A stretch of DNA of 64,000 bases from assembly GCA_039096225.1 (NCBI GenBank), contig JBBPEB010000020.1, forward strand, positions 186,001-250,000, read 5' to 3'. Both the position numbers and the translations under genes were made by a program. The number at the start of each line of letters is the position of its first letter. The stretch's first letter is position 1. This DNA comes from Blastocystis sp. Blastoise. Taxonomy: Eukaryota > Protista > Bigyra: Opalinata. Below, piece by piece: positions 30,490-60,992 of this stretch. The notes below the pieces were generated by a model. It searched no databases and was not told where the DNA came from. It saw only the letters and a list, made by a program, of their open reading frames with translations.

Positions 30490-31140
30490 TTATGAACACG
30501 TAAAGAAAATTTCAATATTATTTAAAGTAATATTCACGGGACTATCATTTTGATCACGAATTTCCCATGAAATATCATTATAATAACCATCAACCACGGG
30601 AATACTAATATTACTTAATGACCAATGATTATCAAATCCTTCTTCAGTATATATAGGTATACTAATCATATCATTATCACGGTTAACTATACTACTATAT
30701 ACTCTTAATAAATAAATTTTTTCTATTGGAGAATTCAGAACATAATCATCTGTTAAAAAAATAAAGTTTCTCATATCTGTAGAACTTCCAGTAGATTCCT
30801 GCGGTAATTTCATTATTTCAAAAAAATAATTATTTTCTGCTATATACCGAGTAAATGCATGACCTAAAAATAAACATTTATTAGAAGTATCATAATCAAA
30901 ATTTGGAATAATTGTAGTTAGTTTATTTATAAATTCTAATAAACTATAATTTCCCCCGGGAATTTGATATTTATTATTTTGTGTATCCATTAAAATAAAA
31001 TCATGAATATTTTGTAAAGCTAAACCATTTACAACCGTGGTTATATGAGTAATATTTTTTCCAACTAAATCTAATGCAGGTTCTATATGTTCATTATAAA
31101 ATGGACCTTCAATAAAACTACAATGACTAACTGTATTCAT
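30490..31140 (-). CDS. Minor capsid protein (penton, single jelly roll)
   Basis: IPGGNYSLLEFINKL, LRVYSSIV, ISIPI and ISWEIRDQND motifs typical of Polinton/PLV pentons; lies between the ATPase and MCP. Confidence 0.72.
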   Translation of the reverse strand: MNTVSHCSFIEGPFYNEHIEPALDLVGKNITHITTVVNGLALQNIHDFILMDTQNNKYQIPGGNYSLLEFINKLTTIIPNFDYDTSNKCLFLGHAFTRYIAENNYFFEIMKLPQESTGSSTDMRNFIFLTDDYVLNSPIEKIYLLRVYSSIVNRDNDMISIPIYTEEGFDNHWSLSNISIPVVDGYYNDISWEIRDQNDSPVNITLNNIEIFFTCS

Positions 31141-31180
31141 GGGAATTTAAAAAAATAATTTTATATAAAAATATTTATGT

Positions 31181-32479
31181 TTAATTCATAGCTCCATCTC
31201 TAACAAATTTAACAAAAATAAAATGAATAAATAATTCAACTTTATGATCTGTTGTTTCACTAGCTCCAAATTTATAACCTGTACCACAAGGTGATGTTTG
31301 TATATAATAATTTATTTCACAACCTGAACGTGTATTAACATCAACAACAGAACCAATTGGAAATAAATAAATAGGTTGTTCATACCATTTATCACCATCT
31401 AATACACACATAGGATTAGATTGTGATCTCCATATATTATATAACATATTATTAGGTATAGTTTGTAAAGAAGTAGAAGTACCTGGTATTCGACGTGTAG
31501 CTGTAGGAAATTGTGTTTGTGTAAACATATTCTTTCCACCTATTTGAAAATTAATAGTAGTTGGTGCTTCTAAATTAGTAGGTACCATAGCATCTTTAGC
31601 ATAAGTTAAAAACATTAAACAATAATCAGGAACAAAATTAACACTTCTATTTTTACTTGTAGTAAATTCACTTTTAAGCATAACTGCATTACCTGCTGAT
31701 GCTTTTACTGTTTCTTCACCTAAATCATCAACAAAATAACTTATTTGACAATTATTTGGAATACATTTAATTAAATTTCTTGCATCATTACCCCAATTAA
31801 TATCATACATATGCCTAAAATTCATGAATGCTTTATCTAAATTAAATTCAGAAAAACAATCAGTTTGACTAGCTAATTTTGTTAAATAATTAGTAACAAA
31901 TTGAAATTTCATAGTTTTTAGTTTAATAGCACAATCAAATGTACCTAAACCAGTAATTAACATTAATGGAATTAAAATTTTAAAAGTAGTAACAGTATCA
32001 GATTTAGAATTATCTATCATATAAGCTAATGTTTTTAAAGATGATACATTATCATATAAATTTTCAACTGTAGCATATATAGATTTATCTAATTCAAATT
32101 TACTTAATTCTTTAATAGCTATAAATTTTCTAGCTTTACTACTATTTAATGATGGTTCACTATAATTAACAGCTATATCTGTTCCTGTTGGACTAATATA
32201 TACCATATCTACAGTAACTTTATCTATTAATGCATAAATATTAGAATGTTGTATTAATGAAGCTGAAGTAGAATCTTTAGTTTTCTTTACATTTAACCAT
32301 AATTCTAAATAAGAATTACTAAAATCAATATATGGATTATCAACTGTATTATAATGAAAATCAAAAGTATATGGACTAGACTTTAAACTTTGATTTGTAG
32401 TAATAGGAATAGGAATTTGATTTTCTGTAATAGTTTGATGATTTTGTGATGGCATAAATTGTTTTGGGAATCCATCCAT
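31181..32479 (-). CDS. Major capsid protein paralog 1 (double jelly roll, predicted)
   Basis: FDF..YIDFSNSYLELWLNV N-terminal motif, IPLMLI, PDYCLMF and PIYLFP; 432 aa, beta-rich, within the morphogenesis cluster. Confidence 0.7.
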   Translation of the reverse strand: MDGFPKQFMPSQNHQTITENQIPIPITTNQSLKSSPYTFDFHYNTVDNPYIDFSNSYLELWLNVKKTKDSTSASLIQHSNIYALIDKVTVDMVYISPTGTDIAVNYSEPSLNSSKARKFIAIKELSKFELDKSIYATVENLYDNVSSLKTLAYMIDNSKSDTVTTFKILIPLMLITGLGTFDCAIKLKTMKFQFVTNYLTKLASQTDCFSEFNLDKAFMNFRHMYDINWGNDARNLIKCIPNNCQISYFVDDLGEETVKASAGNAVMLKSEFTTSKNRSVNFVPDYCLMFLTYAKDAMVPTNLEAPTTINFQIGGKNMFTQTQFPTATRRIPGTSTSLQTIPNNMLYNIWRSQSNPMCVLDGDKWYEQPIYLFPIGSVVDVNTRSGCEINYYIQTSPCGTGYKFGASETTDHKVELFIHFIFVKFVRDGAMN

Positions 32480-32577
32480 TTTTTTCTCTCTTTTAAAAAA
32501 AAATAAAGTTTAAAATGAAAATAAAAATATAAATTATATAATTATTATAAAATATAAAATTAAAAAATAATATATCT

Positions 32578-34206
32578 TTAAATATCACGAGTACTTCTAA
32601 CAGCTACCATATGTATAGTATATCTATGTGTATCAGAAATTTCTTGATTTATAGTTCTTGTTATACCAGCATGTTTTGAAATATAACCACTTAATGCATC
32701 AGTCTCTATATTAGAATTATCACTATATGTTTTTATTACTTTATTAGCTTCTAAATTACAATCAAAATTTAATTCTATACCTTGATGACTAGATACATTC
32801 ATAAGACTTTTACAAGGTATAACAAATATAGGATGTTTCATCCAATTATCAAAATTTAAAGCAGTTTCAGGATGTGAATTATCTGCCCATAATGAATATA
32901 ATGATTTATTAGGACAATTATAATGATAAATTTCTAAAGCATCATTTACTTTACCATTATTTAAAACATTATTATGATATTTTTGAGTAGGAAATTCTGT
33001 TTGTGGAAACATTTGAATATCACCAACTAAACAACTTAGATATGTTGGCCATATATAAGGTGATGGAATATTACTAATTCTATTAACATCCCAATCTTCT
33101 GTAAAATAAAATAAAATATATTCAGGAATAAAAGGTATTGCACGATTAATATTAAAATATTTATTTTTTATTAAATCATAACGATAATCTATTTGAATAT
33201 ATGTAGGAATTGTTTTATATAATTCTTCTTGATTAAAATTAACATTTTGATATGTCATTAATTGAATATTAGCAGATTTTAATAATATACTATCAAAAAA
33301 GTTTGCATAAAAGAAATTCCAAATTGTAGGTAATGTTAAATCAAGAGAAGCAGTAGCACTTTGTGTAGTATTATCAAATTGATTATATTGTTGAACATAT
33401 AATTTTTGATTATTTTTTAATAATGTTATAAGTGGAGCAGTTCTAAATGTTAATTTCATATGTTTTACTAAATTAAGTGAATCACCATCAACACCTAAAC
33501 CACTAATAAGATATAATGGAATAGCTAATGTTAATTTTTGATTTTCTTGACGAATAATATATTTTAATGTATTTACATTTTCTTTTGGTGTATAAAGACA
33601 TTCGCCATACATAGATTTTTCTAATTCATATTTTGGAACATCTTTTAGAATAATCATTTTTCTAGCTCTAGATGAATATAATGAAGTTTCATGATATTTT
33701 AAAGCACGTTCACTACCATCAGGTAAACCATAAACCATTTCTACATCAGTACTATCAATTAAAGCATAAGTATTTGTATCTTGTTGTAATTGTTCTAGAC
33801 ATAAACAAATTAATTCATGTTGAGTTAATAAAACTGTATTTTTTAATGTAAATGTAATTCTTCTAGTTTTATCCCATGCAGTAGTAGCATCTGCTTTTGA
33901 TTTCCATACAACTAATTCTGAATTAACACCAACTCGTGGAACTGGATATAAATAGTTTCCCCAATATAAATTTGTAGCTACACCATTAATATCATCTGTA
34001 TCAGTCTTTGTATTTGTTAAATGTTCTGGTATAGTATGTGGATCAGCATTATTATATAATGTTAATTCTAAATAACTTTGATTAAAATTAATAAATTTTC
34101 CATCAACATTAGTCCAATCATATTCAAATGTAAATGGCTGTTTAAGTAAATCTACATCTGATTGAATAGGAATAGGATTATTTATTCTTAATATTTTCAT
34201 CGACAT
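32578..34206 (-). CDS. Major capsid protein paralog 2 with insertions
   Basis: Collinear similarity to 31181..32479 along its length (SYLEL, YALID, SS.ARK, IPL.LI.GLG, MF.QT.FPT, PN..LY..W). Confidence 0.7.
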   Translation of the reverse strand: MSMKILRINNPIPIQSDVDLLKQPFTFEYDWTNVDGKFINFNQSYLELTLYNNADPHTIPEHLTNTKTDTDDINGVATNLYWGNYLYPVPRVGVNSELVVWKSKADATTAWDKTRRITFTLKNTVLLTQHELICLCLEQLQQDTNTYALIDSTDVEMVYGLPDGSERALKYHETSLYSSRARKMIILKDVPKYELEKSMYGECLYTPKENVNTLKYIIRQENQKLTLAIPLYLISGLGVDGDSLNLVKHMKLTFRTAPLITLLKNNQKLYVQQYNQFDNTTQSATASLDLTLPTIWNFFYANFFDSILLKSANIQLMTYQNVNFNQEELYKTIPTYIQIDYRYDLIKNKYFNINRAIPFIPEYILFYFTEDWDVNRISNIPSPYIWPTYLSCLVGDIQMFPQTEFPTQKYHNNVLNNGKVNDALEIYHYNCPNKSLYSLWADNSHPETALNFDNWMKHPIFVIPCKSLMNVSSHQGIELNFDCNLEANKVIKTYSDNSNIETDALSGYISKHAGITRTINQEISDTHRYTIHMVAVRSTRDI

Positions 34207-37200
34207 ATTTTTATTAATTTGTTTAAAAAAAAAAAAAGATTTTTAAAATAAATTATTAATTAAATATTATTTTAAATCAGTGCCTTCCCAACTTTTTATG
34301 ACACTTGCGGCAACTTTTTTGTGACACTTTTTTTCAGCCAAGCTTAATTAGACTGAAATAGGATTATTATAACAATCAACTAAAGACTTCAATAATTTGA
34401 AATACTATAAATGATGATGTTAGAATACTTCATAATATATAGTTCTTATATGATAATAAATATAAATTATGACTATAATCAATTATCCATTCCATTATAA
34501 TTTCAAAATACTCTTAATATTTTATTATGACTTTTATTAGCATATATTAATTTTAAGTAACATATATAGTACAAAATCAAAAAAAAAATAAACAATAATT
34601 ATGACTTTTAAAGAAACGTTGTTGTCAAAAATGTTTATAATGATTTAGAAAAGAATTCACAGTGATATTAGATGATGTTTACTAAATTTTAAAAAATTAG
34701 GAGCAATATATGTAAGAAGAATTATTTGACAATTGTAATAATCGACATAGAACGTTCAAGTTTTCAATAAGTTAAGTAACTACAACTAAAATACAGTTGA
34801 TAATATCTTAAACAGATCAACATTTATATTTGAAAAATAAGAATGATTAATAACTGCCAGTAAACTGTGCTTATATTTTTATAAAATAAATGAATCAAAC
34901 AGAATAAGCTATATTGTATATATGCATTACAAATTTAAAATTATATGATACAATTACAAAACTGATCCTTATAAAAAGTTATTAGACAGCTTAAATGTTG
35001 TTTCAATCATAGTGTATTGTGTATATTCATGCATCTTTCAACATTTTAATATAAATAAAAATAGCACATTGTATTATACCATATTCTAAGAAAGTGTCAG
35101 CCTAATATTCACAATGGAATGAAGTAAAGTATATCAAGTAATGGCCATGATCATACAAATATTATAGAATTAGATTAATCCAATAATAGAATAAATAATG
35201 TTTTATTAATTCATGAAAATTATTGGTTTTTCACTTAAAATTTGTAAAAATTCGATGATTATTCTATTTGTAAATTAAATTTATTATATTTAATTAATGG
35301 CTTCAATTTGGTTATTATCAATCTTAATCTATAATTCTATTGTATGAATAACTTTTATTTTTATTGTATTATATAGAAATGCTAAAAAAAGTTAATTCAT
35401 TCTACACATTTCTATACAGTTGTCTTTATATAGATTATATACTGGCTCTTCAGTTAAGCATGTGTTCAACCCTTACAATTCTAATATGAAAACAAATTCT
35501 TAGACATACGTATGTGCAATTGAAAGAAGATGTTGTCGTTGTTGATCATGTATTTCTTATATTATTATTATTACTTTATATAGTAAACAAAATAGTTAAG
35601 AATTCATGTATAATCCATCATTAGAAAAGACATTCGTTCTTTTCTTCTTTATAAATAAAATGGTCATTCATTTTTAATATTTTTCAAGGTATTTTTAATT
35701 GAATCAATCATTTATATATATTATTAGACTACACAGCGGTGGATTCATGATAATTACTAATTCTGATAAAGGTATATACATGTTAATTATTCGATTATGT
35801 TACATATCTTATTACTTTTATTAATAATTATTTTTGGTTTATTAAAATATTTATTTCTTTTGAGTCACATATTTAATAATTCATTTATTATAATTAAATA
35901 ATAGTTTATCTTTTCTTTCACCTTATAATTACTCTATAGGTTAAAATTTGTTAGTCTATTACTACATCATTTCAAACTCTCTTAAATCCATAATTACTCA
36001 TACTTCTTGTTCTATATACCGTTTGGTCTATCTTGAACAGTCCTATTTTCAATTTTTAATAATTTATTCCCTTCGTTGTGTTTCATTTATTCTTAAATCA
36101 CTATTATTAACAATTATCTTCATTAGTTAAAATTTAATTAATAATTATTTTTAGCCTACTTTCTCTTCTAATTACAAACTGATTACTATTACATATCAGC
36201 TTTTCATCTTCAATTGTGTCATCATTATTATACCTTATTTCATTTTGATTAAACTTAGTTCTTCTTCTTAATAATATGTATTCTTTTAGAGTAACAACGA
36301 CATTAGCAGTCTTTCCTATAATTGATTTCATTATCTTTTTAGCCCTATTCTTATTTTTGTATACATAACATCTTCCTTGACTGCATAAGTATTATGTCAC
36401 ACTTCAATAACCATGCAAAATGTTTTCCTATATTTAAGCTAATTTTCTCTATTTATTGATAATATTTTAATAATTCAATATATTTATTATTTCCAGAATT
36501 ATTAGTGATAATTGTCAATATACATCCTCTTTCATTAAAGTATCCTCAGTTCTTATGACTTCATTATTAACTCCTTCTTTCTTATCATCAAATATCTTAA
36601 TACATATTGAATTTCACATTTTTTAATAATTGAGTTTGGATTTCTCTACAAATGTTTGATCATTCCTGTATTTTATTTTCATTTCATTTCCATATCATTA
36701 GGGTTTTCATTATATACATCTTCCTAGTTTTTATATATTTTTTTTGAATGACTTTTATTACTATTCTTGAACACAATTACTTTTCCATTCTCATTTCTCT
36801 TTATATATATTAATATTAAAAAATTTCTTCGATATATCTTCCTTTGTGTTCTTCTTTAATAACGAGTTTATATATACATTTACTCCTTTTATATGTTTCT
36901 ATTCTTCTTATTCCAATTAGTTTTAATCTTATTTCATAATTAATATCCTTAATTTAGTTCATGTAGCGTACGGTGTCTCACACACTTTCACATTTATTGA
37001 CTTTGTTATTAACTTTTATAAAATAAAAATAACATCATAAAAACCGGAACACAATTCTGAAAATGACTGTTAAAGAAATTTTTCGAAAACTCTAAATTTC
37101 TGGCTAAAAAACGCAAAAAACCATTTTCGCACAAAATTTTAACCAAAATTATTGGATTATTTCTATTTTATCCAATATTTTTCATTTTAATAAAAACACT

Positions 37201-37609
37201 TATTTTTCGTTTTTTATTTTTTATTGTTTTCTTATTTTTTCTATATCTACTCACATTCTTTATATTTATTTTTATAAAATTGACTTTTATTGACGGGTTA
37301 GTCTAATAAATAGTTTTGACGGGTAAATTTGTTTATATTTAGAAGTTGACAACATATCAATACACACATCACTAACTATAAACTCTAAAACCATTTTATA
37401 TGCAATGATACTGACCTCAACTACTCTGAAACAACAATAATTCCTTTAAATAACAACAAAAGACAAACTGATATCCAACACATTCCTTCTTTATAAACTT
37501 ATTTGAGTTTATTCAAGTGATTTTGAATCAATACATGTCAGAAATATGTCTTTTAGTTGTTTAAAAAGTTTTCATAAGAAAATATTTGATAATAGAAATT
37601 TTGATGTTT

Positions 37610-38850
37610 TGATAGTATAGTTTGTTATTCGTCTTTCTCCTTGAGTTTTGGGTATTTTTTAAAAATAAAAGTATAATTATAATTAAGATAAGCTATTGCA
37701 GATACATATTTTTTATTTTATCTAAATATTGAATATTGACTGAGAAACATTCATTTATATGAAAAACATAAAAATGAAAATTTTCAAAAAAGGGTATAGT
37801 TTGTTATTGTGATTTCTCAATCAATTCTTAATAAAATAAAAAAGTTAAAACATATTTAGAAACTAGACATGTCATAGCAGATACATATTTTTCATTTTTT
37901 TAATTAATTGAAAACTCAGGTGACAAGAGTCAATAGTTGAACTCAATAAAAAATGACTTTCAAAAAATTTTCTTAAAAAGTTTTCATTTGTTTTTTGTTT
38001 ATATTTTCATCATTAACAATTTTATTTGACATTTTACTTTATATTTAAAAACTACATACCAAAATAAACATATTTTACAATTTTATTTTGTTTTTAAAAG
38101 ACTTTAACAACAGATCACCAGACAATGTTAACTCAATAAACTCTTAAAACGTTTTAATATGTGTTTAGAACCACTCATAGACACTGAATATGACTTATTT
38201 GAAAAAGTTAAGACAACATGTTGAACTGATACAGACAATGTTTGTTTTAAAAAGTTAGTTATGAGTCTTTATGAGTTGTATATGTCATAAATAAGCTTAA
38301 AATAAATAAATAAGTTTTTAATTGTCTTTAATTAGTGAAATAAATCGTTTAAAAAAAGAAAACATTTTTGATACTATAGTTTATTTTGACAATTTCTCCA
38401 TCAATATTAATTTTTAAAAAATAAATAAAACTTATATATAAACTAGACAACCTATAGTTTATATATTGATAAAAATCTTATCAAAATATATAATAACTTT
38501 TGAGATAAAAAATTATATATGAAAAACATAAAAAAATTAATTTTTGAAAAAAGGGTATACTTTATAACATTAATTTCTCAGTCAATATTTTATTATTTTA
38601 TATAATTTTAACAAATAAATACATAGAATAAGATATATTAATTATATTATTTTTAATATTTGAAATTAATAAAAAAATGAGTTCAGTAGAGTCAATAGTA
38701 TAACATGTTAAAAAACTGAAAATTGAAAAATCGTTTTTCTAAAAATTTTCTGAAAGTTGACAAATCAAATTCATATTTGACAATTAATTTTTACATATTT
38801 GAAAACTAGACATTATATGTATTGCATATCTCAAAAAAATGGTCAAAAGT
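37610..38850. repeat. Degenerate ~180-bp repeat units
   Basis: TATAGTTT..TTTCTC motif at about 37612, 37792, 38372 and 38553. TATATGAAAAACATAAAAA..AAAAAAGGGTATA occurs twice. Confidence 0.6.
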
Positions 38851-40459
38851 GGAGTTGACGAGTGAATGAGTATATGCACATGTTGGCTCATAATTTTATA
38901 AAAAGTAGTTCAATATGTCCTAAACCACATATTAGGACAATTCTATAAATATTATCACTTTATAATGAGTTTAAAGGGTAAAATAATTTTGAATTGTCTG
39001 TTTGACTGTCTTAAGTGAAGAGATTCAAGTCACTTTTTGTAAAAATGAGTATTAGAGTGTTTAATGTTTATAATAATAAAAGAATTGTTTGAAATAAAGG
39101 TGGTTGTGTGTTTGACCAAAATGTTAAAATGAGTCTATTTTAAAAAAATGGTTAGAATAAGAAAGTATTGAGTGTTTTTGGAGTATTTTATATTAAAATC
39201 TACAATAAATAAACATTTTAAGTTGTTTAAAAATTTGATTCTTTAGAATTACAATAGTTAAGTCAAGAGATTCAAGTCACTTTTTATAAAAATAATAAAT
39301 AGACTTATTATAGAATATAAAATATTAAAAATTAGTTTAATTAAACATGGTTGACTGTTTGATAGGAATGTTAGAATGGGTAAAAAGATTTTAATTGTTT
39401 CTAAAACAGTATAATACGTTTTTTTGTCACTAAATACAAAAATATTATTGTTTAAAGAATGTTTTTTATCTTTCAAAAGAACTCATTTTTTGTAATTGTG
39501 ACTTTAAACAAATGAAATTCAAGTTACTTTTTATAAATTAAAATAATAAATTAAATATATATGTATATTAGCATAAAATTAGTTAAAATAAAAGTGGATA
39601 TGTGTATTTCAAAACGTTAAAGTCTTTTAGAGTTTTTTTAAAATAACTCATTTGTTTTATAAACTATATTTTATGTATGATAGTTACAGTTTTTAAAGTA
39701 CTAAATCTATTTATGATATAGAATGTAATTTTTGGTTTATATTTAGTTTTTCGTTTCATTTAATGAAATGATTTTGAAAACATTATAAAAAATGAATAGA
39801 TAATTTTTAAAAATAATTCTTTTTTTCTTTTATAAAAGAAATTCTATATATGATAAATATTTAGAAAGAACTCTATGAGTTATTATCGATTATATAGAAT
39901 AATATATATATTTTAATTATTAAAAATATATATATATTTTTTTAAATCCAAATTGAAATAGGAGTAATAAAAAATAATAATATTATAAACATTTGAATCT
40001 GATAGTATTAAAATATAGTAACTATTACATATAATTAAACATTTATTAATAAGAAAAGGGGTATAATAAAATATTAAATATATATATATAATAGTATATA
40101 TAAAAAGAAATGATAGAATATAAAAAATCAAATAGAGATAAAAATGATAATAATTTAAAATGGAATAAAATAATATATGAGAAAATTTATAAAAGAATAA
40201 ATAATATTTTTTAGACAAAAGAGTAAGTTCTTTCTCATAATAATAATTATATAGAATAATTAAAAATAAAAAATAAATTCTTAAAGATAAGAAATAACTG
40301 ATAATAATAAGTTTTAAAAGAAAAAATATTTTATAATCATAATAATATTGTTTAAAGTATAAAATATTTATAAAACTAAATGAATTTATAATTACAAAAA
40401 CAGTTATAAATAAATTAACAAAGAAAAGTGAATTAATATAGAAAACTAAAATATAAATT

Positions 40460-41045
40460 TAAATCTAAATAGAAATCTAAATAGAAATAGAAATAGAAAT
40501 AGAAATAGAAATCTAAATAGAAATCTAAATAGAAATAGAAATAGAAATAGAAATAGAAATAGAAATAGAAATAGAAATCTAAATCTAAATCTAAATCTAA
40601 ATAGAAATAGAAATAGAAATAGAAATAGAAATAGAAATAGAAATAGAAATAGAAATAGAAATAGAAATAGAAATAGAAATAGAAATAGAAAAAGAAATAG
40701 AAATAGAAATAGAAATAGAAATAGAAATAGAAATAGAAATAGAAATAGAAATAGAAATAGAAATAGAAATAGAAATAGAAATAGAAATAGAAATAGAAAT
40801 AGAAATAGAAATAGAAATAGAAATAGAAATAGAAATAGAAATAGAAATAGAAATAGAAATAGAAATAGAAATAGAAATAGAAATAGAAATAGAAATAGAA
40901 ATAGAAATAGAAATAGAAATAGAAATAGAAATAGAAATAGAAATAGAAATAGAAATAGAAATAGAAATAGAAATAGAAATAGAAATAGAAATAGAAATAG
41001 AAATAGAAATAGAAATAGAAATTGAAATCTAAATTGAAATAGAAA
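40460..41045 (+). repeat. (AGAAAT)n microsatellite
   Basis: Direct inspection. Confidence 0.97.
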
Positions 41046-41424
41046 TATGAATAAGATTAAAAATAAAATATAAGAGCTAATCAATTATTATTAATAAACA
41101 ATAAATATATATAATCAATAATAAAAATAGCTAAAATGATACTAAATAAAAAAGGAAATACTACTCAAAAAATGTAATATAAAATGTTAAATAGGAATTA
41201 TGAATAAAGTGTGAATTAAATTATTTAGAATATACTAAACTAATAACTAAACAATAGAAGATAACAACTAAAACAATTGAAATAATAATTTATAAAATAT
41301 GAAATAGTCTTCATCCTAAAAATAAAAAAATAGAAATGAATAACAAAAACATAAAAATAAACATAATATTTAAAAAAAAACCAACATAAAATATAACAAT
41401 TAAGAGATGACAACTATCAAAACT

Positions 41425-41461
41425 CAAGCGTAGGCTGGCGTAGCCAGTCGTGAAACGCTTG
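41425..41461 (+). other. Isolated GC-rich hairpin, possible Helitron-type 3' end
   Basis: CAAGCGT..ACGCTTG enclosing GGCTGGC-GTA-GCCAGTC, ending CTTG|T. Confidence 0.4.
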
Positions 41462-43913
41462 TATATCTTAATTATATCCTTCGTATGATTCGTAGCTATT
41501 ATTACATATCTGATATGCAGTTCTCTTTATATTAATAGACTATTTTTTGGCAAAAACCTCTTTTATCAATTGTTTTCATTTTATTTAACATTTATTTCTA
41601 TTTCAATTATAAAAGAAGTCTTCTATTCGTGATTTCATTTATTCTTTTCATTATAATAATAGTAGTATACACTAATTATTGATTTCTTATTGAGCTACCA
41701 ATGATTTTGTCATTATTTTAATTTATGCTAATATTGTCAAAACACAAGTTTTCTTTTTCTAGTTTTTTCACTTTATATTTCGTCATTTGTTTATTTTTAT
41801 GATTTTTTTCAACTCTATCACAAGTTTTTATTCATTTAAAGCATTTCCTTTATCACTTTCTCTTATTATCAACCTCTCTTTCGTATAAATATAAGTGCCT
41901 ACATATATAATATATGCTTTTAAGCTTCAACTATTATCTATTGCTATTCATCTTCTTTATCCTATTTTATTCACACAATTCCCTGCGCTTATACATATTT
42001 ATTTAAGTGTTTTATACAATTATATTTTTTTGTTTTTGCTTTTTGCTTTTTATTTTATAGGATTCTTAGATCAAAATTATTTCATTATTATCCTTATTTT
42101 AATGTCCTAGTTTGATTTCCATATTACTTATTATAATGATGTGAATTTATTAATTTGAAGATAGTTTTAAATTTTTTATTTTTAGTTAATGATTTCTATT
42201 CTTCATCTTCTTATCAGTGTTCTGTCTCTACTATTCCTTTATTGACTAACTAATTTGAAATCTTCTTATGTGCCTTATACCATTATTAATCCATTCTTAA
42301 CTTATGTCTTGTCGTTTTTATTATGTAAATATTATATTCTATTATTGGTTATGTTTCTTCTACACTACGTTTTAGTTTCCCTTCTTTTCTTATTTAATTT
42401 TATGATTTTCATCAGTCACTATTTTTTGGTCTTCTCTCATTATTTGTTTCTATTTCAATATAAGTTATTTACATAAATGTACATTTATGTTAAAAATTTT
42501 ATTTTAAAGGATATATAACTCCAACATCATCTTCCTTTAACATTAATTATGTAGTATCTAACTACTAATTTGCTTAGCATATTCATTTTGTATATCATCA
42601 AGATTTTAGTATTTCTTTTCTTGTTTACTGTCTTAACAAACATTTATTATTATTTCACAAATTATATATCACTCTTGATGGTTATTATTATTAATGCTTT
42701 TTTTTATTTCATCTTATTTATTGGTATTTATTGTATTTACTAACCTGAGTTTTTGATACATTATTGCTAGTATCATTTAATTACTGAATTATCTTAAATG
42801 AATTCAATGCTTCTTATTATTTATTGTGATTATCGTCTTCATTCTTTCTTTAAATTAGTCTTCTTAGTTATACCTTATACATATAGAAATATTTTTTTAA
42901 TGAATCATATTGTTTAATGTTCGCTTACATTATTTTCATTGTTTATTTATTGACAATATTATTTCACTTTAGAAGAAATATATGATTTTTGTTTCTCGCT
43001 CTAATTTAATTATTATTAATTTATTCTCATTATCCTATTTTGGATTTATTTACTTATTTTAATTTAATTGAATTATCTTTTACTTATCATCACCTTGGTA
43101 TATCATTTTAAGAATTAATATTACTATAATTTATAATTAGCATTTTTAAATATTTCTTTAAAACCTATTATTTGATTTGATGATAAAGTATTCTCTTTGC
43201 CACTCTGAAATCTCTCTTCTCTTTTATTTTCTAATTGTCGAATTAAAATAAATTGTATTCCTTTATATAATCACTTAAATATAATGTCTTGTTGTTCCTT
43301 AACATGTTGATAATAGTTAATGTAGCTAGTTATTAGTCTTAGATCCTATCATAAAGAGAAAATGATTCTATAATCAACTTATTAATCATTCCTCAATTAT
43401 CCTTTTTATATATCTATTTTCCTTCATATTAATCAATAAATATATTCAACATTACTTTCCTCTTTATTATAAACATACTTTTTTTCATGGTATTGATGGA
43501 CATTTGTTCTAAAGATATAAATAACAGAAGAAGAGTTATTATATATAATATAATACACTATTATTATTTTATCATAAATATTTTCAATGATTTATATGGT
43601 TTCGGTTATGGAAATAAATTAGTTTGTAATATAATGGAAATTAATTCCTTTAACCACCGTTAATAATAGATTATTTCATGTCTATATTGTTGTGTATTCA
43701 AAAATATAATATATCTCTGCAAAATAGAATTATTATAATCATATTGATGTTTAGTAAGAATAGAGTTAAGGATATATATAAATATAGATATGTATAATCA
43801 GAGTACGTTAAAAGAATTTAAACAAGAAGAATATATATAATAATATATAATTGATATATAATATAAAACAATTTTTATTCTTATCAGAAATAGCAATAGA
43901 ATAGCATATAATA

Positions 43914-46900
43914 CTAGTCACAATTTAATAGTGAACTTTTTAAGACCTTTGTGGTAAGGTTATTACTGAGTATTGGTAATCTAAGATCTTCCATATACTT
44001 TTCCACAATTTCGCTGCTATTCAATGATGAAAGAAGATCTTGATTACACGTACTTGACATGTATGCTTGAAGCAACTCAGGCTTCATAGATGTTTGAAAA
44101 CAGCTTTTTATTCTTCGTAAAGTACTAAAACAAGTCTCACTTTTGATACTTGTTGGGTTGACTGTTAAACATATTTGCACAGCGACCTCATACATTGTAT
44201 AGTTTATTTGATACTTTTTGCGGATCATTTCAATAATATCACTTATTGAAGATTCAAGAGAAATAATTGTTTTTAAATAATTTATCATCTGTCCTATTTT
44301 AGATACAAAATCAATAGGAAGGCGAAAAGAGAATAGAGAATAGAAAGTCTGTATGCACAATAATTGAGTATCTTCACTAGTTCTGAGAATAAGATCAGGT
44401 GTAACGAATAATGAAAGTGATAAATCCTTAATTATGTCTTTGTATAATCTTGTTATCATACTTTGTTTTATTCGTAATATCATAAGATTAATATTTGCTG
44501 AGAATTGATAAATATTATTTCTATTATTTTCGAATATAATACTATATATATAATACTTTAAATAAAAAGAATATAAACTGAGTTATATATATATATATAT
44601 ATTCGTATAATATATGAAGATATATATGGAAATGTATATAAAAATTTCTATGGAAATGTATATGTATAGTTATATTAAATATATACTTATAATTTGATGA
44701 ATCTAATTTAGATTTTACATATAACTTCTTCTCATCTAAAGTTGTATTTGAAGTGGTTTCTTGAGATAATGACTCAATAGTACCAATCTGGTCAACATTA
44801 TATGTTGAAATAATTCGTTTTTTGTCAGGATATAAAGAACGTATATCTTTAATAATATTTTCAGAGTTTCTAGTACAATTCTGTATCTTCCGTGGTCTAC
44901 CTCTTGATCTCTTAGTTTCAGATAATAATAAAGGAGCATTTGATTTGCTTTTACTAGAATTATTTGAATTATCTATATTCTTTAATGAATTATTAGTATT
45001 ATGTAACGGTGATAATTCGCTGTATAATATAGAATAAAATATATCTATATCTTCATCTAATATATTATAGATATTCATTATCGGTTTTTCTGGGCAAGAT
45101 GTGATTGATGTAGACGAAGAAGTAGGAAGAGAAAGAGAAGAAGATTTTTGTTTTGTCTCTTGTAACAATATAAATTGAATATATTTATCTGAATTAGTAT
45201 TGTTTATATTTGATACACATCTATTCATTCTTATATCTTTACTATGCTCATTAGCAGCAACAGGTGCCATGTTAATATCATTATCACGATTAATCAGAAT
45301 GTTTTGCTTTACTCTATAATACATAATATATATATGAGAATTGTTATAGTAATTTAATTATGATATTTGAATATATATATATACCTTTTTGTTTGTGGAA
45401 CTTGAAGACCTTTATATATATACGTTCTTTGTAAATTTTCCTTTTCCATTTCTTCCCTATAATTGAGAATTGAAAGTATTGACTCTGATATAGAAAATGA
45501 AGACTGTTGTGGAAATGAAGTATCATAATTACTCAACGATTCTGAATTCAATACCTCTCCACTTTCAGAAAAATCATCGTGACTTGAATTTGTATCATCA
45601 TATGATAAATCATTTGCTGAATTTTCTATTATATCTATATTAAACTCATTAATATAATTAGGCATATTATTCATGATATTAATAATAGAGTCTATACAAG
45701 ATTTAGATTCTATGTTACTATACTTCTTAAGACATTGTGCTAAAGATTGAATATTAGAATATAAATAGTCTCTTCTATTAACAGCATTCTTATACATTTT
45801 CTTTATGGTTTGTGGAGAACATAGGTTAGAGAGACGATCGAATGTTTGGTTAATAATCCTAAGTGCTTCAGAAACAGTAAGAGTATCCGATTGTAACTGA
45901 GAAGATGCGTCATGCATAATACTAAGTAGATAAAACCAAGACTCAATATATAATTGAAATGATACCTCTCCTATTACCTTTAACATTTGTTCACAATTTT
46001 TGAAACATATATTATTTTTGTTATACGAATAATAATATAATAGAAATATTTTGCATAATGTCTGCTTTGAATGAATCATATAAGGATAAATAGAAAAATA
46101 TCTAGCTATGAATCGTGTATCTGATATTTGTGGTAGAGTGTACAAGCTAAATCCATGATTCTTTATAAGAACCCTAATTCTTGAGCATCTTGACCAACTA
46201 GTAGCAACATTATTAATAGTATCTATGTAGAATGAAGAGTCAATAATACTTTTCTGTAAGTCCAAGAGAGAGAGATTAAGCATGTGTACACGGCATCCAT
46301 AGCCGATTATTGAAGAAGGATTCATTGACAAGCCGGCAATAATACCAGATGTAATGCTTGTATTACAAATACAGTTGTCGTATGATATACAACATAAATT
46401 ACTTTTAATATAATTAAATTGCTCGAGACATTTAAGTATTGATTTTGCAATAAAAACACCTGATGGTGAAGTTTCTTCTAAGATATATAAAAAATACTGA
46501 TGAATCTTAAAATTATCATCAATATAACGAATAGTAATTGTTAATTCTTCTAATTTTTGTGCTGTTGTTCCATCAGTTGTAAGACTATACAATTTGTTTC
46601 CAACATTATTCTTTAATATTTCTATAAGGCTTTTTGAAATAATACTTATCCATTTTTGGATTGATCTTATTGATTTATATATCCTTTCATTCTCTATTAA
46701 AAATTGATTAAATATAGGGTCATTTTTTCCAGTAAGCTTTAACAGTGTAAGAAACATACCACAATTAGTTGATGATAAAGTAGTAGTGTCACCATATATA
46801 GAGTGTATATGAGATAAACAAACACAAATACAATTATAAAACTTTGAAAGGAAATATTTCCATACTAGTTTATTATTCGTGGTTATACAATGATTTGTTG

Positions 46901-49141
46901 AATTAGATATTAATGTTTGATTATTTTTCAAATTTTGAAGAAGACTTCTGAATTTCTTTAATGCTATTTTATGAGTACTTAAAGACATATGTGATTCTAC
47001 TGTAGTGTATATATATTTATTTCCTGATAACATAGGATCTTCAGAATAAAGGAGACAAGCAATACAATACCATTTATGTTCATCTTGATTATATGATATA
47101 AACTTATTATATACTCCATTATGCTTCAAAATACTTTTAAGTGATGGATACTTTAGAGACTCAACATCATAGAACATATTATCATCAGCCAAATATGAAA
47201 GTAATTGTATTATATCACTTCTATTATTATTCAAGTAAATCTTCCATCTTTCATTCTTATTAAGAATAGAATTCATATCCTCACTCATAGAAGATTCAAT
47301 ACTATTCTGCTTAACTAAACTGAAGAATTGATCATTACATTTAAGACAAGATTTAATATTCTCTATAGGATAATAATGAGAATTATCATCAACTTGTTTT
47401 GCTATTTCAGATGTTTTATAAGATATATTTTGACTAATATTAGTATTATATTGTGATTCGTCTCTTGCAGAAGATTTAGTATTCATATTTTTATAAGAAT
47501 CAGGAAGAAGTAAATACATGTTATTAACAATATCTATTGTTATGGAAGCAGAGAGTAGGAGAGATCCAAATGAATCTGAAATGTATCTTGATAAGGAAAT
47601 TAGTTTGGCAGCAACAACTTCTATTGCTTTCGTATTTAAAGATGTAACTGTATAAACTTGTTCTAAATATAGTATATATATACTATAAACTATATATATA
47701 CCTAAAGAATTATTATCCTTCTTCTTCACCTCTTCTCTTTCAATTGATAATGAATCTACTATATATATTTAATTATTAATTATTATATTATTAATTATTA
47801 TATATATATACCTAAAGAATTATTATCCTTCTTCTTCTCCTCTTCTCTTTCAACTGATAATAAATCTACTATATATATTATTAATTATTAATTATTATTT
47901 ATTATATATATACCTAAAGAATTATTATCCTTCTTCTTCACCTCTTCTCTTTCAATTGATAATAAATCTACTATATATATTTAATTATTATTTATTATAT
48001 ATATATACCTAAAGAATTATTATCCTTCTTCTTCTCCTCTTCTCTTTCAACTGATAATAAATCTACTATATATATTATTAATTATTAATTATTATATATA
48101 TATACCTAAAGAATTATTATCCTTCTTCTTCTCCTCTTCTCTTTCAACTGATAATAAATCTACTATATATATTATTAATTATTAATTATTATATATATAT
48201 ACCTAAAGAATTATTATCCTTCTTCTTCTCCTCTTCTCTTTCAACTGATAATAAACCTACTATATATATTATTAATTATTAATTATTATTTATTATATAT
48301 ATACCTAAAGAATTATTATCCTTCTTCTTCACCTCTTCTCTTTCAATTGATAATAAATCTACTATATATATTTAATTATTATTTATTATATATATACCTA
48401 AAGAATTATTATCCTTCTTCTTCTCCTCTTCTCTTTCAACTGATAATAAATCTACTATATATATTATTAATTATTAATTATTAATTATTATACATATGTA
48501 TATACAACTAAACTGTAAGCTGGGGTCTTCTATGCTGCCATTCTTAGATATAATACCATCAATGAATTTTAATTCTTTCTTTAGGGATACTTTATTACAT
48601 ATAGTATTGATAATTAGGTAATTAAAAAGCATACCACATATATATCCATCTTCTTGACAATATACACTTATTTTCTCATTTGCTAATCGTACAGATTTAT
48701 AACCTTCTTGAATAATACGTTTTGACAAAGATTTATTTACTAAATTACATATATTTATTTATATATACATATATAATACATGCTGCTATTTCTTTTAGTG
48801 TTTTTATTTTACCTTTATAAAATGCTTTTTGTTTATTCTCAATTTCTAGACATTTTTAATAATAATATCTAATGAATACCTTCAATAATAAAAATAACAT
48901 TGTAACCTGACTTTTGAACCATATCTATGAACTTCTTATATTCTTTTATTTTTTGAACTCTCCCATTCTATATTTAAAATGACTTTACATAAAATATTAA
49001 ATTACTTACATGTATTTTTGGTAAAAGATCGCTAATAGAGTGTTTATGATGAGTATCATCATAATAATTTTCAGCATTTTGTCCTAAATATTTTCTTACA
49101 TATATTGGAAGCAAGTATATAATAAATGAAGCTGTTATCAT
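43914..49141 (-). CDS. Multi-exon hAT transposase (TTF/ZMYM1-like); 5' exons damaged
   Basis: WYCIACLLY..H....H Zn finger, SLTTDGTT, ISYDN, GCRVHMLNL (CxxH), DTRF, AT-hook RGRPRK and C-terminal dimerisation motif TSIKSETCFSTLRRIK. Introns 45314-45384 and 44542-44686 join the three large ORFs in frame. A TAG at 48869-48871 and a nearby frameshift affect the 5' part. Confidence 0.88.
47701..48460 (-). repeat. Eight tandem copies of a 57-nt phase-1 exon plus flanking intron
   Basis: Each unit reads TATAG|TAGATTTATTATCAGTTGAAAGAGAAGAGGAGAAGAAGAAGGATAATAATTCTTTAG|GTATATA and encodes VDLLSVEREEEKKKDNNSL or a close variant. Confidence 0.85.
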
Positions 49142-50029
49142 GGTATATAATGATATATAACCCTTTAAAAAAGTATATTTTATAATAAAAAGAAAAGAAT
49201 ATTTTTCTTTTTTGCGATTAAAATGACTTTTTCAAAATATTTTTTAAATATATATTTCATTTATTCCTTTTAAGACTTAGACTATAGCCGTTTAGGTAGA
49301 AAATCATTTAAGAAGTCTTTGTTTTTTCATTTTATTCAGTCTTCATTAAAGTATTGAAAATTCTTTAAAATGATTATTGTTTTGTCTATACTTTTAAATA
49401 TGTCTCCTATCCAATTTTGATAATTACGATGATTCCTAACGATTTAACAACTTTTTTACTAAATCCATTGAATGCTCAGTCGATCTGATGGACACTTGAC
49501 TGCTATGGAAATAGTTGATATGTCACAATTTAGTTATATTAATAAATTTATGAACACTAAAGGATATGAAAGAAGTTTATATTCATCAAATAATTAGTTT
49601 TTAAAAAGAAATTATAAAAATAAAATGTCAAAAATGAACACAACGTGGGTAGATCCTCAAGCTAAAGGAAACATTAAGGCTTCCCAATCTCTTGGACTAT
49701 ATTTTTAATAAAATTTTAGTATATATTGTTTATATAATGTTAATAAACTTCATTTATTATTAATTTTATTCATTTTGTTTCACGACTCTCAAAGTATAGT
49801 TTATCTACATTAGTTTAAAATAAATCTTACGTTAATAAGTTGAATTCATCCTAAAAGTATAGAAATAATCAACATCTTTATTATTGATAAAATAAAATGC
49901 AATAAGACTATTTTAAAATTCTTAAAGTACAACCGTTCTTCTATATAGCATGAAAATGTCTTATATTGTATATTTAAAAAGAATCTTGATTAAATATTTT
50001 AAAAAGTTTAAATTTTATATCATTCTATT

Positions 50030-56330
<6,301 letters not shown>

Positions 56331-56922
56331 TATAAAGAGTTGTTTAAAAGCTAAAAGCCTTGATACCTAAAGAAAGAAAGCAATTAAGTAAAACAGATTA
56401 TAAAAATTAAAATAAATACTCAAGGCGAATACTCTTGATAAACTAAGTTGACTAAATAAAACCAAAATGAATGATCGTATCAAGAGATAATCAAAATAAA
56501 TATATAAAAGAACAAGTTTCATAAAAAGATGTTTTTCCAAGAAAAAAAATAAAAATGCCACAGGCGAGATTCGATCCAGCGACAATAACCACAATAACTA
56601 CAGCGGTGGTCAACTATACCAACTGCTTTCTCGATTTTATTTTCTTATGTGTTCTATATAATAAGTTTAAAATTATTTGAAATCTTCAAATATTATATTT
56701 ATGCTCTTTTATTACATTTATAACATTCTAGAAATACTTAGAATTGTTTTTAAACAAAAATTACTTAATTTTGGAAAACAATTATATGTTGATATGTTGA
56801 TTCTAAACTAAAAAGCAGATATCAATGATGTAAATCATGTTTACAAATAGTAAGATGAAACAAAGTTGATTTTTAATAAAATCATTGTAAATAACAGTCA
56901 AAAGAAAAAGTTTAAAAAAATA

Positions 56923-56992
56923 GTTCCTCGTAAGAATCGATCCGTCGACCATGTAAAAATTTTGTACGCACTGACCATTTGACCAAACAACC
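56923..56992 (-). pseudogene. Degenerate tRNA-derived sequence
   Basis: A-box-like TGGTCAAATGG and B-box-like GGATCGATTC with weak acceptor pairing; other arms pair poorly. Confidence 0.3.
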
Positions 56993-57924
56993 CCCTTATA
57001 ATATTTTTCATCAAGTCATATAATAATTGCAAAGCTAGTGACTACTAACCGTTTTTTTATTTTTTTATTTTTAAACATTAAAACAATATATTTTATAATA
57101 TAAATATTATAAATGTGTTTTGTGACTTATTCTTCATATAAAATGTATTTTAAAAGCATTTTATAAGGCTATAAAAAATCATTTTGTTGGACGTATTGTT
57201 TTTTCAAATCCCGCTTTTGTTCATCGTATTGTTTTTTGTTTGGTTTTTGAAAATAATTATTTTAATATGTTTTTTGTTTATTTAATTTTTATTACTAGTC
57301 AGGGGGTATCTGTAGAGTCCCTACAAGACTCCTTCATGATATTTAATAAAAATAAAAACTTTTTAATTACATTATTATTTTTTATAATATTTTTTAGTAA
57401 TTATTGACATTATTTTACATTACAAACATAAATAAAACTCTTTAAAATAATATACAAAAGAATATTTTAAGCAATTAACTTTTGTCACAAAATATTTTTT
57501 GTTTATCACTCAACTTAACACAAATAGTCAAACATAGGAATCATACTTGTTGTTATTTGATGACTTATGAACTTTTAAGTCATGTATCTGTCACAACATG
57601 TGTCACAAAAAACATTTTATTTGACTTATTTTCAAATAGTCATACACTATATACTAAAATAATATGTTTTTAGTCAAAAACTGTCACGTCATAATATAAT
57701 AGTCAATGAATGAATTATCTTTTTTATGTCACCTGGTCTTTTTTTGTGAAAAGTGTGTAAATCGACGTGTCTTGATGAGCTGAGTTTGAAAATATTTTTT
57801 TTATATTTTTAAAATGAAAAACAAAAAAGTTATTAATAATTTTTCATTTTTGTGTCACAAATTTTGCTGACAATTGCGACGCCGCAAAAAAAAAGGGCCT
57901 TTTGGAAGTCGCTGTTTTAAATAT

Positions 57925-60237
57925 ATGTCAGAAGATAAAGATAATAGAATTAAAACACAAATTATACCTATTAACACTTTAAGTGTTAATAATGAATTTG
58001 ATGTACATCTTGATACAAATATTGATATACAAGGTGATACTATAGGTTTTGTTGATCTTAATTTATGTAGTAATATTAATTCTAATAATGAACAAATACC
58101 TATATTTAATACTATTGAACAAGATGAAACATTAGCTATAAATGGTATTCTTATTGATATTCCTAAAGGTTATTATGATTTATCTACTTTATTAAATATA
58201 ACTGGATTTAAATTAAAACAAGAAGAAAATAATGAAAATATTGCTTTATTATCTTATACTTATGAACAACCTAAAATCTTTGTTGTAGATTCAAATAATA
58301 ATAAAGTAAAAATATATATTAGTGCAGGAAGAAATCAACAATCAACTATACCTAATGGTAAGTATACAGAACAAGAATATATAGAAGAAATTGCATGGGG
58401 AATGAATAGTTATTGGGGTTCAACGGCATCCTCTCGATATTGTGTAGATTGGAGTGAATTTGCTTATAGTATACGATTAGCAAATAATAATGAAACTATA
58501 CATTGGATTAATCATGATGACACAGTAGGTGTCTTTAGTACTGCACATTCATTTCATTTTAATACAATAACTAACGGTATATCAACTGATTATGATAAAT
58601 ATAATTATATTAATTTTATTGATACGAATGATAAAACAATATGTAAACAAGAATGGAAATTTGATAGAGTAGTTAATTTTGCTGTTATTGAAGAAGGAAA
58701 AAATACAATATATATGAGTATGGGTGCTGATTATCCAAAAATGTTTCTTATTACTATACCTCCTGGAACATATACACAAAAATCATTTTATGAAGAATTC
58801 TGCAGACAATCAAGTATAGCATGGCCAGCAACAATACAACCCGGTGGTATTGATACACTTGATGACTGGACAGAAGAACATCCATTCTGGTATTTACAAA
58901 ATGAAGAATTGAATGATGCTTATTTAAGTAATTATGACTTAGAACATAGTTTAATGGATTATTATGGTATATTACATAATTTACAAACATTTAAATATTT
59001 TAATTCATTTACACCTATAAATATGTGGGATGTACAAGATGGTCCAATGCCTAAATATACAGATTATCCAGAAGAATTAAAACAATGGGTACCAGGATAT
59101 ATACCTCCAATAAATACTACTATTATTCCTACATATCATACATATATAGATGCAAGATTTATTAATTTTGCTACTTGCCCACAATTACGTGAAATTCTTG
59201 GATTTACACAAGAATATTATTTAAATGATGATATAAAAATAAGTGAGAATATAGCTAATATTACTGGAAAAAAATCAGTTTTACAATGTCATTGTAGTAT
59301 ATCAGATACTATGAATAATTGCTTATGTTGTATACCAATACGAAATCCCCTTGGGAATAATCAATTTCATGAAATGATAAATAGTCATGTTAATATAGGT
59401 ATTACTCATACAAATTATTTAAAATTTCGTTTTACAGATGCTGCTGGCAATGGAATAGAAATTGCTGGCAATACGAAATTACTTGGTTTTTTAGAATTAA
59501 AAGATACGGTTGAAGGCTCAGAACAACCACAAACATTAAAAAATTTAAATTTATCTTGTTTAACCGCGGATACACAATTTGAAACTGATTTTAAAGATTT
59601 GAATTTAATTGATAAAACCGTAAAAGATATTATTATACAAAATAATAATCCTTCAACTACTGGTCAAATAAATTCTCTTTATATAAATAATTTTCAAAAT
59701 CCTATTTGTATTTTTAACACAGATCAAAAGTTTCTCTATTATAATAATGTAAATTCTCCAATTTCTGTAAATCATAATATAAAATTATTATTTGATCATC
59801 CTTTTCAAGGAAATATTATTTGTAATGTCTGTGAACCTGTAACAATCCCACGGTTATTCTTAGATTGGGATGAAATCTATTGTGATTTTACAAATTCAGA
59901 CAAATTAAGTTTTAATATTCATAAAGTCTTAAAATATAATAATGTTTATTTAACAAATATTTTAGTATTATCTACAAATATTAAAGAAAACACAAATGGA
60001 ATAGTTTCTCTTAATTGTTTCCCTAATAAATATCAAAATATTATTCATATGATATTCCCAGGGGAATTACCTTATTTTTATAATTCTGATCAAAAATATG
60101 ATTGTATAAAACAATATATGAAACCAAATACGTATGTATGTAATCGCAGTATGTTGTCATTATTACCAAGTATTACGTCATTTGAAATAAGCTGTGACGT
60201 TAGGTGTGTCATACTCTTAAAGATCCAATATAATTAA
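57925..60237 (+). CDS. Large penton-like/vertex protein with repeated insert domains (true start ATG 57925, 770 aa)
   Basis: Three IPxGxY motifs (IPKGYY, IPNGKY, IPPGTY), then LQCHCSI, LCCIPI and LKFRFTDAAG. Most of the first 17 aa of the ORF-track call derive from the hAT TIR and TSD. Confidence 0.65.
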   Translation: MSEDKDNRIKTQIIPINTLSVNNEFDVHLDTNIDIQGDTIGFVDLNLCSNINSNNEQIPIFNTIEQDETLAINGILIDIPKGYYDLSTLLNITGFKLKQEENNENIALLSYTYEQPKIFVVDSNNNKVKIYISAGRNQQSTIPNGKYTEQEYIEEIAWGMNSYWGSTASSRYCVDWSEFAYSIRLANNNETIHWINHDDTVGVFSTAHSFHFNTITNGISTDYDKYNYINFIDTNDKTICKQEWKFDRVVNFAVIEEGKNTIYMSMGADYPKMFLITIPPGTYTQKSFYEEFCRQSSIAWPATIQPGGIDTLDDWTEEHPFWYLQNEELNDAYLSNYDLEHSLMDYYGILHNLQTFKYFNSFTPINMWDVQDGPMPKYTDYPEELKQWVPGYIPPINTTIIPTYHTYIDARFINFATCPQLREILGFTQEYYLNDDIKISENIANITGKKSVLQCHCSISDTMNNCLCCIPIRNPLGNNQFHEMINSHVNIGITHTNYLKFRFTDAAGNGIEIAGNTKLLGFLELKDTVEGSEQPQTLKNLNLSCLTADTQFETDFKDLNLIDKTVKDIIIQNNNPSTTGQINSLYINNFQNPICIFNTDQKFLYYNNVNSPISVNHNIKLLFDHPFQGNIICNVCEPVTIPRLFLDWDEIYCDFTNSDKLSFNIHKVLKYNNVYLTNILVLSTNIKENTNGIVSLNCFPNKYQNIIHMIFPGELPYFYNSDQKYDCIKQYMKPNTYVCNRSMLSLLPSITSFEISCDVRCVILLKIQYN

Positions 60238-60359
60238 AAATAATAGTTTCTCTTTTTAAAGATATAAGTTTCCACTTTTCTCTATTTTTTTATTTTATTT
60301 TATAAATCATTTTTATTTTATTTTTTATTATTTTTAAATAATTCTGAATTCTGCTGAAA

Positions 60360-60992
60360 ATGTCTGAAGATTTGAATAAGTTACCTTACTCTGAACTCCT
60401 TAAAGAAAAAAAATTAGAAAAGAAACTGAAATTATTGAAATGGAATATTGGTGAACCTCATGAAAGTACTTTTGTAGATAATGTTTTTGATATTCGTGAA
60501 ACAATGAAAAATGTGAAACAATTAATTTCTTATTTAGGTGAAACCATACAATTATATGATGAAATCTTGAATGATGAAAATGCCAAGAAGGCTGCCCCTG
60601 AACATTTAGCTCTTATTGATTATTCTACTGATAATAAAGAACTTCATGTATATATAGAAAAACGCATTTTTGAGGGACTCAGAGACATAGATGATTGTCT
60701 TATATATATTGAAACAGAAGCTCAAAGTATTCGTAATCCTAGAGAATTATTTAAGGAAATGAAAAGAATTCGTAAAGAAAAATATGATGAATGTGAAAAA
60801 TTTGTAAAGTATAATATATCTAAGAATGGTATTGATACTCCACCAAGAACTCCTACTCATGAAGCTAAAAGAACTAAGATTGAACCAAGTCAACCTGAAC
60901 GTAATTTAACTCCTTTAATTGATTTTCCAATGCTTAATCTTGACTGTATTTCTGAATCTGAAGAAAATAGTAGTAGTTCTGATAAAGAATGA
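60360..60992 (+). CDS. Viral hypothetical protein (charged, helical)
   Basis: Intact 210-aa ORF with normal composition and A-rich start context. Confidence 0.7.
   Translation: MSEDLNKLPYSELLKEKKLEKKLKLLKWNIGEPHESTFVDNVFDIRETMKNVKQLISYLGETIQLYDEILNDENAKKAAPEHLALIDYSTDNKELHVYIEKRIFEGLRDIDDCLIYIETEAQSIRNPRELFKEMKRIRKEKYDECEKFVKYNISKNGIDTPPRTPTHEAKRTKIEPSQPERNLTPLIDFPMLNLDCISESEENSSSSDKE

Follow-up and report, generated by a model that had tools for sequence, protein, structure and literature searches.

In a 64,000-nucleotide stretch of DNA from Blastocystis sp. Blastoise (contig JBBPEB010000020.1, positions 186,001 to 250,000; hereafter the window), two virus-like genes are held apart by 23.6 kb of DNA containing a transposase gene, and the question that this raises is whether so long a segment arrived as a single transposon. 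An earlier note on this DNA had described it as an element of the hAT superfamily that carries its own transposase together with host genes, inserted in a bidirectional viral promoter. Following the analysis reported here, it seems probable that the insertion is a 23.6-kb hAT with its own transposase and a truncated UTP20 gene, which entered a provirus at an AT-rich site between genes, and it is likely that the full 23.6 kb was cut and pasted as a single unit.

Ends and contents of the element

The ends of the element are real. From the initial CAG (34278) to the final CTG (57914) it spans 23,637 bp, and it is flanked by two identical copies of an 8-bp target site duplication (TSD), TTTTAAAT, at 34270-34277 and 57915-57922 of the plus strand. 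The left end (34278-34311, plus strand) consists of a 14-bp terminal inverted repeat (TIR) starting with CAG and a TTGCGGC box (34305-34311), and the right end (57881-57914, minus strand) repeats this arrangement, with the box at offset 28-34 from either end. The CAG..CTG repeats, the perfect 8-bp TSD and the equally spaced box that had been reported earlier are thus all present, the TIRs being short and imperfect (the terminal 14 nt match at 11 of 14 positions), and the right end indeed lies 10 nt before the ATG (57925) of a penton-like gene.

The duplicated site is AT-only and occurs 22 times on the plus strand of the window. An exact 8-bp TSD surrounds six CAG..CTG pairs in the window, among which the pair of the element scores highest (20.9 vs -7.0 for the next), and in none of 100 third-order Markov simulations was this score reached (mean best score 3.1, maximum 15.0), the CAG start entering this test as a prior taken over from the earlier note. 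Further inward, the motif T(A/G)TGAC occurs five times at the left end (at 34297, 34320, 34468, 34526 and 34600, i.e. within 34297-34605, plus strand) and six times at the right end (57484-57859, minus strand), all copies pointing inward; the counts (five in the first 350 nt where 0.13 are expected, six in the last 450 nt where 0.16 are expected) are for a motif and for stretch lengths that were picked after the ends had been inspected. Repeated subterminal motifs at both ends are a feature of the hAT superfamily, and these copies are likely to be binding sites of the transposase. On the outside, the ends lie 71 nt and 10 nt from intron-free viral genes.

Between the ends, a spliced gene for a hAT-type transposase is found at 43914-49141 (minus strand), its exons and splicing being deduced by comparison with homologues. 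In the numbering of P0001, a near-identical protein from a Blastocystis protein set, the gene encodes a zinc finger (C-x2-C..H-x5-H), D532, D597, a CxxH motif at 625-628 and E1254. The zinc finger, both aspartates and the CxxH motif are conserved in seven of the seven aligned family members, and E1254 in all four that are long enough to include the site. A DDE triad and a CxxH motif are hallmarks of hATs, which also have W at a position that is occupied by F in all seven aligned transposases here. The internal hAT transposase that the earlier note had proposed is therefore borne out by catalytic motifs. The exons that could be compared are free of stops, and as far as can be read from the sequence the transposase is apparently intact and the element apparently autonomous. 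Among 7,993 scored candidates six relatives were found (the near-identical one and five at 48-61% identity). The 5' part of the gene contains eight tandem copies of a unit of ~97 bp, made up of an intron and a mini-exon (47691-48483, minus strand), compared to four such units in the gene model of the sister copy. A fusion of UTP20 and transposase into one gene was set aside, the transposase having N-terminal exons of its own that are homologous to P0002.

The recognisable cargo is a captured fragment of UTP20 with introns (50033-56210, minus strand; UTP20_N in Pfam, E 2e-23), of which the exons were mapped between 55421 and 50051, those further upstream being predicted from open frames only. 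These exons are about 80-99% identical to P0019, another UTP20 fragment, but the 3' part is missing: the cargo stops at residue 972 where relatives continue to 1152-1183, and it contains one frameshift, near 53168. A stop relative to P0019 near 54530 was not counted, as it is probably intronic and read through by the gene model. One UTP20 intron contains a perfect (TAT)n tract of 412 bp (51621-52032). The named proteins nearest to those of the window all belong to Blastocystis sp. Blastoise, an organism reported to be diploid. The window has 22-25% GC and its introns are rich in (AT)n; intron-like (AT)n runs number 2.7 per kb in the transposase segment and 6.2 in the UTP20 segment vs none in any of the three viral segments.

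No second host gene was recognised. Neither in the left arm (9.6 kb) nor in the right arm (1.7 kb) was there a credible match to Pfam or Rfam or a relic of known proteins. A Pfam search with 63 short frames, taken from these arms and from a second insertion in the window (63 of the 67 listed, four at the viral edges being omitted) yielded one weak match, which was disregarded, Rfam gave no matches, and none of ten further open reading frames (ORFs) was found by exact look-up. The earlier mention of host genes was therefore right in that the cargo is host-derived and overstated in the plural, since UTP20 alone, as a single truncated and frameshifted fragment, can be recognised.

Transposase and cargo have a sister copy. 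P0001 differs from the transposase of the window at only 4 of 1210 compared residues (a comparison that omits the N-terminal exons, the mini-exons and one segment spliced out by the P0001 gene model), and it is located on a contig of 1,322,594 bp, while the window's own viral proteins are located on one of 532,122 bp. By locus tag and accession, P0001 is directly followed by the UTP20 fragment P0020, which agrees with the window against P0019 at seven residues; this suggests that enzyme and cargo were copied together. The end of P0020 falls inside the last UTP20 exon of the window, and six codons at 56284-56301 (minus strand; a unique match in six frames) are identical to the start of its gene model, so that the block common to window and sister comes within 1.6 kb of the right end. 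A block matching at most 43914-56301 thus exists twice, although part of its interior may be deleted in the sister. None of the five members of the penton-like cluster is on the contig of the sister, which is therefore likely to be at another site. The cargo differs at 11 of 453 residues compared to 4 of 1210 for the transposase, i.e. at about seven times the rate (Fisher p 2.5e-4), which fits selection on the enzyme and none on the cargo, although gene conversion could produce it as well.

Truncated UTP20 also appears to be amplified in the strain after which these relatives are named. A search spanning 395-2000 aa placed the P0016 cluster (five sequences, all of at most 1183 aa) on 1, 7, 5, 1 and 1 contigs (15 contig records). 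Supplement file 7 of PMC10690189, an InterPro table, lists 21 N-terminal UTP20 domains and one C-terminal for this strain, vs one N-terminal domain in each of two other tortoise strains. In the same table DUF4371 counts five vs zero in both others, and hAT dimerisation 12 vs one and three, while the available main text mentions neither UTP20 nor hAT nor Polinton.

The interrupted provirus

The DNA on either side of the element fits, judged by its predicted genes, an endogenous Polinton-like virus, and the insertion between a major-capsid-like and a penton-like gene is in line with the viral setting described earlier. To the left, MCP2 (32578-34206, minus strand; 542 aa) is major-capsid-like and a look-alike of double-jelly-roll proteins, with an Atlas feature score of 0.96 to capsid clusters and a TM of 0.54 between predicted models; profiles of the MCP family gave no sequence match in Pfam or PDB. 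It forms a tandem pair with the adjoining 432-aa gene (31181-32479), a paralogue at 29% identity, and a search of 1.84 billion representatives yielded five unnamed relatives of MCP2, at 35-61% identity. Next to this pair are a P-loop ATPase (29345-30391; match to a terminase family, E 3e-10) and a 216-aa gene that is penton-like by eye, together covering 29345-31140 (minus strand). To the right, the 770-aa gene at 57925-60237 (plus strand) is penton-like as a lead (Atlas 0.93-0.94, to clusters in which 13-17% of members carry DUF5901 or V18-19), with no significant pairwise similarity to the 216-aa protein, and it is accompanied by a gene that is protease-like by eye and has no PDB matches. 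A tyrosine-recombinase-like integrase (3-962, minus strand; phrog_216, E 2e-4) continues past the window edge, and viral DNA continues past both window ends. Related viruses have been mentioned for human Blastocystis (PMC8502044).

In the empty site, the ATGs of MCP2 (34206) and of the penton-like gene would be separated by 73 nt. After the insertion MCP2 keeps 71 of these and the penton-like gene 10 nt, where the earlier note had the penton-like gene cut off from a region shared with MCP2 and capsid expression plausibly lost. That the site lies between viral genes arranged head to head is correct, but the bidirectional promoter is suggested, and weakly, by this geometry only; likewise, the penton-like gene is indeed cut off from the common region, but MCP2 is not. 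The motif TTTAAA occurs within 40 nt upstream of 9 of the 15 viral genes (ORFs in 1-6225, 28826-34269 and 57923-64000), compared to 9.6% of viral 40-mers drawn at random, which is too low a background for the AT-rich DNA between genes. It is a candidate viral promoter motif and at the same time the target site of the hAT here. The penton-like gene keeps TTTAAA because the TSD copies the motif, and with MCP2 retaining 71 of 73 nt, loss of expression is plausible for the penton-like gene only.

The provirus contains a second, Mutator-like insertion of 22,582 bp (6235-28816; 6226-28825 with its 9-bp TSD TTTATATAT). Its ends are long, inverted and G-starting, with repeated AAATACCC; a 9-bp TSD and long G-starting TIRs are hallmarks of Mutator elements. 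It splits a viral ORF into 29302-28817 and 6225-4936, the halves of which are in frame and stop-free until the distal end. The interior has purine-skewed low-complexity tracts and no confirmed gene, a Mutator transposase included; 26 frames scanned in this region gave no Pfam match, and a 66-aa stretch (7091-7288) is FAR1-like by eye. A tRNA-Ile was called at 27442-27512 and a 72% similar copy lies 11 kb off, at 16311-16403; both are possibly tRNA-derived repeats.

Viral DNA in the window amounts to 17,764 bp and, with both inserts, to at least 64 kb, for viruses of which the genomes measure 14-40 kb (PMC12220804). With 23.6 kb and 22.6 kb inserted, the provirus is likely too large for packaging, and its excess size, together with the second, gene-splitting insertion, is a likelier cause of inactivation than loss of capsid expression.

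Alternative histories of the locus

Several observations weigh against the insertion of the 23.6-kb hAT as one unit. When any 2-nt inverted start is allowed instead of CAG (103,537 pairs), three (TA)n-flanked pairs score 21.2-21.5, i.e. slightly higher than the element, which means that TIRs and TSD alone are not decisive; the ends are decisive because of the inward subterminal motifs and the junctions abutting intron-free viral genes. The C terminus of the transposase matches the Pfam hAT dimerisation domain (E 3.5e-4) at 20.7 bits, below the cut-off of 21.4, with a weak match in two of the six relatives, and a PDB profile search with the transposase family returned no solved hAT transposase. 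A Pfam profile search with the same family gave nothing useful, and the single-sequence structure model has a pLDDT of only 34.8. Because the profile search returned no hAT structure and the model has so low a pLDDT, the assignment to hAT rests on the motifs and the ends. The sister is seen at the protein level and covers at most 43914-56301, not the left arm or the ends, and its contig and the viral-protein contig may come from different assemblies. Metagenome scans (with the left-end pattern and with the transposase alignment) and viral contig scans (with MCP2, the ATPase and P0029) found no related locus. P0016-P0019 occupy 14 contig records vs a P0001 cluster of one member, and in view of the lack of a matching number of near-identical transposases, the longer UTP20 fragments may have another carrier. 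Many mobile families are expanded in that strain (MULE 26, Tc1-like 39, integrase-like 36), so that finding hAT and UTP20 expanded together is not specific. Finally, the left-hand viral genes are singletons at 90% identity (all five found in the collection), while the three right-hand genes all have siblings, on three other contigs and in a local order that is kept by locus tag; the adjacency of MCP2 and the penton-like gene is therefore not confirmed by other copies.

The alternative that survives best, though we consider it unlikely, is that a smaller hAT of about 14 kb or less, with transposase and UTP20, was inserted and that its left arm grew by 9-10 kb in place. The left arm (34312-43913) has 20% GC, few intron-like (AT)n runs and no recognised gene, and it includes a ~600-bp hexamer array ((AAATAG)n, about 100 copies, 40449-41047, plus strand) as well as diverged internal repeats at 37.6-39.4 kb; the lack of a gene, the array and the repeats, in an arm outside the evidence from the sister, would suit such growth. 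Yet searches of the interior revealed no nested element bounded by clear TIRs and a TSD, although one of the scans was insensitive (it missed the ends of the hAT itself), and no relic of transposase or UTP20 turned up in the arm.

A good deal less probable is that the element had entered two different viral copies, each time at the upstream motif TTTTAAAT, and that these were recombined or were joined by the assembler; the flanks would then derive from different viruses, and the TSD would match only because the target motif is shared. The frequency of TTTAAA upstream of viral genes would provide a shared target motif, and the lack of siblings on the left and their presence on the right is what such a junction would leave. 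Moreover, the penton-like genes of the sibling viruses (89-92% identity, on three other contigs) are block mosaics of each other. Recombined copies would, on the other hand, require two insertions and a crossover, and the flanks together make up a non-redundant set of viral genes (ATPase, two MCPs and the 216-aa gene on the left, penton-like and protease-like genes on the right). In addition, the first eight residues of the penton-like protein, to the right of the element, already differ from all three siblings, so that the asymmetry is accounted for by a crossover between viruses in which the element had no part. That the ends match by chance or as a relic, around host DNA that came by another route such as segmental duplication or repair capture, is hardly credible: this reading can point to the short imperfect TIRs, the AT-only TSD and the three low-complexity pairs, but the ends lie exactly at the edges of viral DNA, each has subterminal motifs in a set orientation, and a hAT-type transposase lies between them.

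If the element was inserted whole, as we prefer, its history may have been as follows. The 5' portion of UTP20 would have been acquired by an ancestral element, from either the native gene or one of the amplified truncated copies, probably through a switch of template while an excision gap was being repaired. Transposase and cargo would then have been copied jointly, with the transposase under purifying selection and the cargo decaying. The transposase would bind T(A/G)TGAC and cut at the CAG ends, and the insertion, with a stagger of 8 nt at TTTTAAAT, would have ended 10 nt ahead of the ATG of the penton-like gene. What traps the provirus would mainly be its length of at least 64 kb, of which 17.8 kb in the window are viral, together with the second insertion, and not a failure to transcribe MCP2.

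A wider reading, which we regard as doubtful, is that this lineage runs hAT and Mutator elements of more than 20 kb that ferry host DNA and prefer Polinton-like proviruses as landing sites, the hAT targeting viral TTTAAA, and that in one strain they have multiplied truncated UTP20, a ribosome-biogenesis gene, by a factor of about twenty; giant transposons would thus trap proviruses in an unpackageable state.

Comparison with known systems

DUF4371 is typical of Tip/ZMYM1-like hATs; in the transposase family it is above cut-off in one of the six relatives and present as precomputed annotation in all six. The element is probably near the Tip group (BuT2, Tip100) of the superfamily, with which it has an 8-bp TSD, short TIRs and a spliced transposase gene in common (PMC3942097). 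It differs in its host cargo, its repeated mini-exons and the length of its transposase (about 1,330-1,480 aa vs 643 aa in BuT2), and above all in size: hATs are typically 2.5-5 kb long with TIRs of 10-25 bp (PMC3942097), in line with the earlier statement that they usually measure a few kb, and with its 23,637 bp the present gene-capturing hAT is unusually large, at about five times the length that is usual in the family.

The cargo that cut-and-paste elements carry in nature is considered to be limited in size, and a hAT of 23.6 kb that is apparently autonomous and has both a sister copy and a decaying cargo would be a natural test of this limit. The largest cargo-bearing hATs found in print measure 5.6-14 kb (PMC3538342, 10.1101/500207, 10.1101/2024.03.04.583430). 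No published account of this element or of any hAT above 20 kb was found, in a search with subscription journals and Repbase outside its coverage. Interest in the element rises if its full length moves as a unit or if it targets proviruses. It also offers a cause for the 21-to-1 excess of N-terminal UTP20 domains, which is unremarked in the available text of PMC10690189, and two such inserts in one provirus would show in concrete terms how endogenous viruses of protists can be disabled.

As for the cargo, a transduplicating hAT of Pyrenophora tritici-repentis (5.6 kb, 10 copies) carries a histone H3-like gene and is likewise autonomous, with a host-like gene between its TIRs of which the copy number has been raised; the present element is four times larger, and its cargo contains introns and is truncated and frameshifted (PMC3538342). 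ToxhAT (14 kb) is similarly a large cargo-carrying hAT inside a larger mobile element, but here the cargo is without evident benefit and the encloser is a virus-like provirus (10.1101/2024.03.04.583430). The hAT transposons S0-S2 of Pandoravirus celtis (7.3-10.3 kb) also combine cargo and their own transposase inside viral DNA, but they carry viral genes in a giant virus, whereas here a host fragment has been brought into a small integrated virus that is more than doubled by it (10.1101/500207). Capture of gene fragments between TIRs is shared with Pack-MULEs (below 7 kb) and enlarged CACTA elements (16-20 kb) in a review of giant transposons, which calls elements above 20 kb "giant" and the available text of which contains neither the word hAT nor hobo (PMC6431247).

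With respect to the location, Ngaro retrotransposons of about 6 kb interrupt about one in four endogenous virophages of Cafeteria (PMC8547959), and a Ty3/Gypsy element lies inside a Polinton-like virus of Hydrurus (PMC10120064). In these cases, as here, host mobile elements interrupt small endogenous DNA viruses of protists; unlike them, the present inserts are DNA transposons, number two per provirus and are each larger than the viral DNA seen. Gene capture by hATs and transposons in endogenous protist viruses were thus both already known, and what is new is the size of the element.

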